Shown here one piece after another: positions 31,549-32,661 of a stretch of DNA of 64,000 nt; positions within the stretch are counted from its first letter, which is position 1, and every line of letters starts with the position of its first letter. The DNA lies in NCBI GenBank assembly GCA_963775465.1, contig CAVZIW010000008.1:1-64000 (forward strand), given 5' to 3'. This stretch comes from Candidatus Bathyarchaeota archaeon (GTDB lineage Archaea; Thermoproteota; Bathyarchaeia; Bathyarchaeales; Bathycorpusculaceae). The notes below the pieces were generated by a model, which made no database searches, was not told the DNA's origin, and saw nothing but the letters and a program-made list of their open reading frames with translations. The translations under genes were made by a program, and so were the position numbers.

Positions 31549-31628
31549 AGTACCAAGTATGGTTTATCCTGGGGATAAATAAACTGCACTAGCTAAAGAA
31601 GATAAATAATGTCTGAAAAGAAATGAAG

Positions 31629-31790
31629 TTACATCCAGTTTTGCCCGGCTTTCCGTTGCAGAATCACACGCTTCTCATAGTTGCGTCTGGTTCGGTTTTT
31701 GGGGCTTGGAGATGTCCTTTCTTGAGCTTGGATTTTTGGGGTTTGGGTCCTTACTTTTCCAGCTTTCGAGAGTGAACCGTGAGTTGGCAT
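31629..31790 (-). CDS. rps30e: Ribosomal protein eS30 (S30e); too short for the ORF track
   Basis: Translates to [53 protein letters not shown] (53 aa). Confidence 0.95.
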
Positions 31791-31888
31791 ATTTTACACC
31801 TTTGGCTCATTAAGCAGAAACGTTACACTTAAACCTTTACCCATAAATGTTGCCTTTAAAAAAACTGCATTTGTCTTATTGGGAAAAC

Positions 31889-32181
31889 AAAAAAGTGGAA
31901 ATTTACGGTTTCCCGTGAAGTCTTTTATTCCACTAAATTCTTATTTGCAGGTCAAGTCTGAGCCTTATTGTTGACACGGCCCACCTAAGCAAAGTCTTAA
32001 CCGTTACAGATCTTTGTACCGTTTTGAATCTGCAACTCAAATGCTTAGCTGCTTCAACACAATGCATGTTCAGCCCAAAGAGGCAAAGTCTTAGTCGCGC
32101 ACCAATTTTTCGCTGTTTTAATCAGCGCGCATCTATGCCTCAATGCATTGCATCTAAAGCTTACTCCCTGACCTGCAAATA
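31889..32181 (-). ncRNA. Candidate novel structured ncRNA with two homologous pseudoknot-like domains
   Basis: Perfect 13-bp closing helix (31942-31954/32169-32181), duplicated domains 94 nt apart, G-U pairs on the minus strand, upstream TATA, 3' GAAA hairpin plus U6. Confidence 0.7.
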
Positions 32182-32201
32182 GTACTTTGCAATATGCTAA
32201 G

Positions 32202-32214
32202 TATAAATTTTGCG
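32202..32214 (-). promoter_or_regulatory. BRE/TATA promoter for the candidate ncRNA
   Basis: Minus strand CGCAAAA-TTTATA, ending about 20 nt before the first base of the closing helix. Confidence 0.6.
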
Positions 32215-32292
32215 ACAATTATGGTGCAAAATAGGACAATTTTGCATCATTTGTGACTAAGCTTTAAGTGGCGAAACAACAGCTAACCGTCT

Positions 32293-32661
32293 TTAGTTTT
32301 TTGGAAGTTGAGGTTTTTTTGCTACTTTTTCTTCTTCTGTTGGGTTGCAACTAATCTGTTCTATGACTTCTTTTTGTAAAACGTTGATGACTTCAGGGGT
32401 CAAGGCGTCAACTGCGCTGTGGACTCGGGGGTCGACGATTGAATACATTCGCTTGGTTCCGTCTTTTCTGCACCTTATTAATCCGGTGTCTTTGAGGATT
32501 TTGAGATGGCGGGAAACAACTGGTTGGATTAGACTTAAGTGGGGAATTATTTCGCAGACGCATTTTTCTCCTTCTCGGAGGTATTCGAGTATTTCCAGGC
32601 GGTCGGGTGATGAGAGTGCGTGGAAGATTTGTGCTTTGAAGCGTTGTTGGGATTGGGACAT
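32293..32661 (-). CDS. arsR: ArsR/SmtB metalloregulator
   Basis: IFHALSSPDRLEIL, EKCVCEI, VSRHLKILK. Confidence 0.88.
   Translation of the reverse strand: MSQSQQRFKAQIFHALSSPDRLEILEYLREGEKCVCEIIPHLSLIQPVVSRHLKILKDTGLIRCRKDGTKRMYSIVDPRVHSAVDALTPEVINVLQKEVIEQISCNPTEEEKVAKKPQLPKN

Follow-up and report, generated by a model that had tools for sequence, protein, structure and literature searches.

The window, the whole 64,000-nucleotide stretch of Candidatus Bathyarchaeota DNA analysed here, carries on its minus strand a genuine gene for an archaeal RNA that is highly structured and so far undescribed. The gene probably stands alone, and its non-coding RNA is probably excised at a bulge-helix-bulge (BHB) splice motif of the tRNA-intron type and joined end to end into a circle. 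An earlier note, made from the letters alone, had listed six features of this gene, all of which are present in the minus-strand sequence where they had been placed; the identity and the length of the mature RNA turn out to be different from those proposed there.

The BRE/TATA-like promoter element CGCAAAA-UUUAUA (CGCAAAAUUUAUA; 32202-32214, minus strand) ends 20 nt ahead of the start of the P1 helix at 32181, just as had been claimed. In most of the 54 homologous genes listed, a TATA-like hexamer lies at a fixed spacing, 45-50 nt upstream of the 5' cut. The earlier description of a stand-alone RNA gene under a promoter of its own is supported. Immediately upstream of the BRE and overlapping it, the window carries three copies of GCAAAAU/AUUUUGC, both inverted and direct (32210-32255), and related TTTTG..CAAAA palindromes precede the TATA element in other lineages; these copies may serve as an operator or as part of a strong promoter. 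At the opposite end, the trailer hairpin AGUGGAA..CGG-GAAA-CCG..UUCCACU followed by U6 (31889-31934, minus strand) is present as reported, and a GUGG..CCAC hairpin with a U-run recurs in 17 of the 32 homologous stretches, in which the inner stem covaries. The hairpin and U6 likely mark the end of the transcript, presumably as a terminator. The sequence of the outer stem AGUGGAA/UUCCAC is itself conserved, in the window and in 16 homologous stretches, and the conservation of the hairpin exceeds what a plain terminator would need. The minimum free energy (MFE) of the minus strand is -100.6 kcal/mol (z -5.05, with none of 100 shuffles as good) vs -80.8 kcal/mol for the plus strand, so that G.U pairs favour the minus strand, in line with the wobbles pointed out before.

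The RNA evidence consists of assembled contigs from four metatranscriptome runs of four studies (sediment, two salt marsh and aquatic), examined out of the 24 metatranscriptome runs that contain part of the 64-kb stretch. These contigs, which were placed on positions 31600-32500, do not report on strand, abundance or the circular fraction. Contigs of runs X2 (189 nt) and X11 (151 nt), which come from different studies, join 32160 to 31958 and so go back 203 nt; the joint is unambiguous (both = 0) and connects non-repeated sequence. The loose contig ends of runs X1 and X6, from two further studies, spell the same 32160/31958 junction, and the identity of the junction contigs is 99-100% across the four studies. 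Read in the RNA sense, G32160 is joined to G31958, and the cuts fall at GGGAGUAA^GCUUUAG and GGCUCAG^ACUUGACC, each after the second base of a 3-nt bulge (AAG and AGA, respectively) that flanks the 4-bp helix GAGU/GCUC. Neither a 28-mer nor a 16-mer across the junction occurs in the DNA of the source genome or in any of the 239 loci examined.

Because the joint lies inside both bulges, we take the mature RNA to be a 203-nt circle (31958-32160, minus strand) that runs from G32160 to G31958 end to end. Given that the inner 203 nt are joined head to tail, the closing helix, the leader and the 3' hairpin would be the discarded "exon" parts. The linear RNA of ~290 nt (or 240 nt) with a 13-bp closing helix that had been proposed is thus replaced by the 203-nt head-to-tail joint seen in contigs of four studies. 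The suggested search of metatranscriptomes for a discrete transcript of ~240-290 nt yielded transcript-derived contigs that carry the 203-nt joint. In contigs, a circle cannot be told apart from the head-to-tail copies that reverse transcription makes on it. The circles predicted in relatives measure 195-207 nt with two modules and 106-111 nt with one. The 203-nt circle sequence contains no RUGAUGA box C.

The stalk of the precursor consists of an outer helix, P1, and the BHB. The 5' strand of P1 (32167-32181, minus strand), which belongs to the leader or "5' exon", pairs with the 3' strand in the trailer or "3' exon" (31942-31956, minus strand). P1 shows changes on both sides at 9 of the 12 counted pairs in alignment A1, which comprises 29 two-domain homologues, and at 12 of 13 pairs in the single-domain alignment A4. 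The closing helix noticed in the sequence is therefore real and covarying; what it closes is a splice site, not the mature RNA. The adjoining GAGUA/CAGA loop and AGCUUUA/UAAGGCU helix are present as described and almost invariant in the homologues; a BHB explains why the loop barely varies, which a plain internal loop does not. The 5' half of the BHB comprises the central strand GAGU (32163-32166) and the bulge AAG (32160-32162), with the cut between 32161 and 32160 (32160-32166 overall, minus strand); the 3' half comprises GCUC (31960-31963) and the bulge AGA (31957-31959), with the cut between 31958 and 31957 (31957-31963 overall, minus strand). Both cuts are placed by the contig junction.

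All four pairs of the central helix form in 60 of the 61 family members, and only pairing-compatible variants occur (G-C, G.U and A-U at pair 1; A-U and G.U at pair 2; C-G and U.G at pair 4). The bulge of the 5' strand reads A-N-G in 60 of 60 sequences, and that of the 3' strand AGA in 59 and UGA in one. The BHB is defined as a 4-bp helix between two 3-nt bulges and is a substrate of the splicing endonuclease, and the heteromeric endonuclease of TACK archaea accepts relaxed forms of this motif, as given in the text of the cited paper (PMC7714728). The inner helix in the BHB register has ~3 bp in the window RNA and 1 bp in some lineages, with the outer helix P1 strong and covarying; the BHB-constrained fold of the precursor lies 5.9 kcal/mol above the nested MFE. 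Given the short inner helix and this energetic cost, the motif appears to be of the relaxed type and would need kinetic capture or capture by the enzyme. The RNAalifold and MFE folds show two competing registers of the stalk, and the GAGU/GCUC helix had already appeared as an alternative pairing in RNAalifold. Canonical tRNA introns, located between positions 37 and 38, are cut after the second base of the bulge, and the tRNA-Trp gene of the source genome agrees with a cut at this point. The same genome encodes two tRNA_int_endo proteins (splicing-endonuclease subunits) and RtcB.

Other readings of the same bases were considered and dropped. The stalk reads GGG-GA-GC opposite GGC-UYA-GA-CCC, which we take to resemble Kt-7; in the register of a K-turn, the type of site bound by L7Ae, however, the C helix has only 2 bp, and the BHB covers the same bases. 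The 1x8 bulge of the module has the wrong size for a simple K-turn. The alternative GCUUUA/UGAAGC pairing that RNAalifold and MFE folding give for the window is not conserved in subfamily B.

Inside the stalk, the RNA consists of two copies of one pseudoknot module. A model of the single-domain relatives matches both halves of the window RNA, at 71 and 43.9 bits, so that the two homologous domains recognized by eye are indeed duplicates of a single module. Module 1 (32068-32145, minus strand; 83.2 bits with the module-only model R3, and covariation) is built from stem Da (32136-32141/32080-32085, extended by CAU/UUG), stem Db (32120-32130/32097-32107) and a pseudoknot of CAGC (32112-32115) with GCUG (32071-32074). 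Module 2 (31974-32051, minus strand; 62.1 bits with R3) contains Da at 32042-32048/31985-31991, Db at 32028-32036/32003-32011 and a pseudoknot of ACGGU (32018-32022) with GCCGU (31976-31980). The two arms meet at a hinge (32054-32067, minus strand), where the 3' strand of helix P3 (32060-32067, pairing with 32143-32150) is followed directly by the 5' strand of helix P4 (32054-32059, pairing with 31969-31974). The helix described around domain 1 exists as P3 (32143-32150/32060-32067), its outer four pairs competing with P4, and is partially conserved, with 72% of the cells paired. P4 (UGUUGA/UCAACA), which had been missed, encloses domain 2 and covaries, appearing as UGCUGAA/UUCAGCA and UGCAGAA/UUUUGCA in relatives.

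Stem 1 of the module has ~13 bp and is extended by CAU/AUG, which covaries as CGU/ACG; an A-rich 1x8 bulge containing a near-invariant AAAGA comes next, and then stem 2 of 11 bp. The apical loop consists of (G/A)AAAC, the pseudoknot strand and an A-rich return such as UGAAG or GAAAA, and the tail carries GG and then the pseudoknot partner. Many of the unpaired bases are invariant, which is compatible with a ligand pocket or with a purely structural role. The 3' strand runs unbroken through stem 1, the pseudoknot and the enclosing helix, so that stem 2 must fold back; hence, the ~77-nt module is predicted to adopt a paperclip-like geometry.

The covariation check proposed at the outset gave a strong signal in all three alignments. 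In the alignment of 29 two-domain genes, with both pseudoknots included, 75 pairs were counted, 87.7% of the cells are paired and 44 pairs are changed on both sides, compared with 33-36% of the cells paired when the partners are slid. The single-domain alignment (26 sequences from several orders) has 51 pairs, with 89.3% of the cells paired and 42 pairs changed on both sides, and in the pooled alignment of 84 modules, both-side changes are found at 27 of the 28 pairs. Overall, 87-89% of the cells are paired in the three alignments vs 29-43% in slid ones, and none of 500 shuffles reaches the observed values. Taken together, the z of -5.05 for the fold, the excess of paired cells and the shuffles exclude chance. 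The two pseudoknots, suggested before on the basis of a single compensatory difference, are upheld by the 84 modules, in which the second pair occurs as G-C in 40 and as A-U in 38, and the fourth as C-G in 65 and as U-A in 10; within the genus (alignment A1), compensatory changes occur at four of the five pairs of the module 2 pseudoknot.

The source genome contains a second, two-module copy of the gene (contig C10:67243-67474, minus strand; locus L002), which is 73% identical in a blastn comparison, does not have the 3' hairpin, and whose 3' bulge reads UGA rather than AGA. Within the genus, blastn finds 1-3 copies in about 30 of the 36 genomes, and relatives overall carry 1-4 copies per genome; beyond the genus, blastn gives no convincing match, and the wider reach is that of covariance models only. 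The whole-RNA covariance model detects the family in 75 of the 151 genomes of the order and in 25 of the 151 genomes of the class. In the other classes of the phylum, the single-domain model matches none of the 131 genomes. Among the genomes searched, the family was found only in Bathyarchaeia, in several orders. The number of modules varies from one to three inside the same stalk. A single-domain form of 142-148 nt is present in many lineages, for example, in one genus in which all 20 genomes have one copy each, and a three-module gene occurs in genome G013 (contig C12:34741-35064; L034/L054), in which module 1 is tandemly duplicated inside one stalk. All 38 matches of the module-only model R3 in the 151 class genomes fall within stalk-bounded genes; no module was detected outside such genes in this set.

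The RNA matches no known family in the searches performed. At gathering thresholds, Rfam 15 identifies only three tRNAs in the 64-kb window, all elsewhere in it. A permissive scan (E<=10) of 31600-32500 in genomic order has a best E of 0.79, for an implausible microRNA family, and 14 homologous loci that cover all family forms match nothing at E<=0.01. The covariance scans thus agree with the earlier by-eye judgement that the signatures of known RNAs are lacking, and no description of this RNA was found in the literature searched, a search with supplementary files and subscription journals outside its scope. A divergent SRP RNA and a divergent RNase P RNA were rejected as identities because the source genome encodes a canonical SRP RNA (157.7 bits) and an RNase P RNA (193.1 bits) elsewhere. 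A Y RNA acting with Ro was rejected as well, there being no TROVE protein in the source genome. A MITE or dispersed repeat, which the earlier note had named as an alternative, does not fit a 2.4-Mb genome in which only two copies, 73% identical, are present (1-4 in relatives), and the differences between copies of the gene are compensatory.

Could the functional molecule be the linear transcript of ~240-290 nt, with the circle a minor by-product of processing or decay? The conservation of the promoter, P1 and the 3' hairpin with its U-run, the strong covariation of P1, and the preference of the nested MFE fold of the precursor for a non-BHB register all speak for a linear form. However, all the contigs placed, from four studies, fall within 31954-32160 and carry the junction (the uncovered flanks, namely, P1, the promoter, the 3' hairpin, arsR and rps30e, are uninformative), the covariation of P1 is equally expected of the outer helix of a splice motif, and the near-invariant loop is accounted for by the BHB; we regard the linear alternative as unlikely. 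That the junction itself arose by mis-assembly, or stems from a tandem duplication in the DNA of a sampled strain, appears highly improbable. De Bruijn assemblers can indeed mis-join repeats, the two modules are alike and only contigs are at hand, but the same junction was seen independently in four studies (99-100% identity), connects non-repeated sequence (both = 0) exactly inside both bulges of a conserved BHB, and is missing from the DNA of the source genome and from all 239 loci.

A different question is whether a spliced circle has a cellular role. The gene might be a selfish BHB element resembling an intron, or the remnant of a tRNA or rRNA intron of which only the stalk is left, as the presence of 1-4 copies per genome in differing contexts and the duplication of modules, including the three-module gene in G013, could suggest. 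Such an origin is quite improbable given the promoter at a fixed distance, the compensatory changes that keep about 50 pairs and the pseudoknot across several orders of the class, the presence of exactly one copy in all 20 genomes of one genus, and the fact that no host gene is interrupted. Finally, the RNA might be a cis-acting tandem riboswitch or a ribosomal protein leader that controls rps30e through the terminator-like hairpin and U6, given that rps30e lies ~100 nt downstream of the RNA gene in the window and in five other loci. In most relatives, however, a gene other than rps30e, or one on the opposite strand, lies downstream (DNA ligase and HypD are examples), the second copy of the source genome has other neighbours, and the aptamer-like part is excised as a circle. 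Thus, the gene is not an rps30e leader, and we give this possibility almost no weight. The excised circle produced by a stand-alone gene remains the reading that we pursue.

In the window, the gene is preceded by an ArsR-type regulator and followed by the genes for ribosomal protein S30e (Pfam S30) and Elp3. The location "between arsR and rps30e" pointed out earlier holds for the window; it carries no functional weight, the neighbours differing between relatives. In many lineages from several orders, an uncharacterised gene, c1 (~210-225 aa), is divergently transcribed roughly 80-525 nt upstream of the RNA gene. In the source genome, c1 (225 aa) is on a different contig (C2:21184-21858; L090:1477-2154, minus strand), with no such RNA adjoining. 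The gene is conserved and single-copy, is found in 74 of the 151 class genomes, and is present in 23 of the 25 RNA-bearing genomes of the same draw. The c1 protein has no match in Pfam, NCBIfam, PDB sequences or PADLOC. Its structure model (pLDDT 90.6) contains a PD-(D/E)XK/XisH-like core with Z of 8.6-9.2, which is near the background level of that search, and c1 is, accordingly, a predicted nuclease-fold protein.

In other lineages, c1 is accompanied by a second type of RNA with the same P1 and BHB stalk and a different interior, with predicted circles of 125-136 nt and no Rfam match. It was detected at loci L110, L113, L114, L133, L124 and L089, and at 21 of the loci L148-L227, for example, L212:1549-1720 (minus strand). 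The second RNA type is present at 21 of the best 80 c1 loci, always upstream of c1 and divergent from it.

The following pathway is consistent with these observations. Transcription would start ~20 nt before the first cut, driven from the BRE/TATA at 32202-32214. The ~21-nt leader pairs with the trailer to form P1 and the BHB, as the sequence and the covariation of the stalk indicate. The archaeal splicing endonuclease, suggested by the motif and by the genes present, would then cut both 3-nt bulges after their second base, with RtcB, again suggested by its gene, joining the ends to give the product observed in the contigs. The resulting 203-nt circle would have two arms, each with one ~77-nt paperclip module enclosed by P3 or P4. 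Once the ends are ligated, the strand released from the central helix could re-pair as GCUUUA/UAAGGC, a register that competes with the BHB in the precursor, with the junction tetraloop UCAG as a cap.

What the circle does is a matter of conjecture. Being circular, the RNA would be resistant to exonucleases, and our guess, which we consider possible and still appreciably more apt to be wrong than right, is that it is an exonuclease-resistant modular scaffold or decoy that binds one protein copy per module, the number of modules setting the valency. A trans-acting ligand binder or a catalytic RNA is another possibility. More speculatively, and with a rather small chance of being correct, the circle might form a new ribonucleoprotein with c1, as its RNA subunit or as its regulator, one c1 docking on each module and the second RNA type serving c1 in other lineages.

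Bathyarchaeia are a globally abundant group of sediment archaea, and, to our knowledge, large ornate non-coding RNA classes are few in archaea and almost absent from uncultured lineages. Here, a whole gene family would exist only to make a small circular RNA, via the tRNA-splicing machinery, which extends the "moonlighting" of BHB splicing, as in rRNA and the SRP RNA of Thermoproteus, to an RNA that matches no known family. The compact pseudoknot fold, in the single-module form of 106-111 nt, suits structure determination, and the family makes directly testable what archaea use stable circular RNAs for. Should the proposed ribonucleoprotein with c1 prove correct, this would be a dedicated circular RNA/protein system without a described counterpart.

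Tandem riboswitch aptamers, such as that for glycine, also place two homologous folds that resemble ligand pockets side by side. Like these, the present RNA combines two adjoining pocket-like folds with many invariant unpaired bases; unlike them, it has no expression platform and no constant downstream gene, yields a circular product, and varies from one to three modules. Multi-module RNAs that sequester proteins, namely, CsrB/RsmZ and the ToxI pseudoknot repeats of type III toxin-antitoxin systems, in which ToxN is encoded beside ToxI, are similar in their repeated structured units of variable number, and a nuclease-fold gene adjoins the RNA in many lineages, as with ToxN and ToxI. In contrast to the partners of such RNAs, c1 is conserved and single-copy, has no PADLOC match and is not adjacent to the RNA in the source genome; in contrast to the ToxI repeats, the units here measure 77 nt and are not cut apart.

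The nearest precedent, as far as the cited account goes, is the permuted SRP RNA of Thermoproteus, which is circularised by a BHB between leader and trailer, with a leader of 23 nt (Plagens et al. 2015, PMC4731332). That gene, too, is a stand-alone gene for a stable non-coding RNA with a TATA box, a leader-trailer BHB and a circle detected by RNA-seq, and its leader of 23 nt compares with ~21 nt here. In the Thermoproteus case, the splicing endonuclease was shown to cut (PMC4731332), and the circle, as presented there, restores a known universal RNA from a permuted gene; the Bathyarchaeia RNA, in contrast, matches no family, circularisation is not needed for its sequence order, and canonical SRP RNA is encoded elsewhere. 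The precursors of 16S and 23S rRNA also give rise to circular intermediates that are cut at BHB motifs in their processing stems, according to the relevant text of PMC7714728 and PMC12918454. There, as here, long flanking inverted repeats form a BHB-carrying helix, and the RNA is excised and circularised; the rRNAs, however, are in these accounts later re-opened or built into ribosomes, whereas the circles described here are 106-207 nt long and show no rRNA similarity in Rfam at E<=10.

Circular tRNA introns, including the intron of tRNA-Trp that is a C/D box sRNA (as mentioned in PMC12558985), resemble the circle in their cut geometry and in that it is the piece cut out which is functional or stable, and the tRNA-Trp gene of the source genome contains such an intron. 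They differ in that the "exons" of the present gene are a stalk and a terminator hairpin, with no tRNA or other functional exon, and in that the circle lacks a box C. The tRNA-Trp gene of the source genome (C6:291457-291632, complement) has a long intron after position 37 that carries C/D-box-like AUGACGA and CUGA motifs; the 3' boundary of this intron given by ARAGORN seems incorrect, and the gene may hold a second insert. At C4:96916-97506 (complement) in the same genome, ARAGORN predicts a tRNA-Ser with a 504-nt intron.
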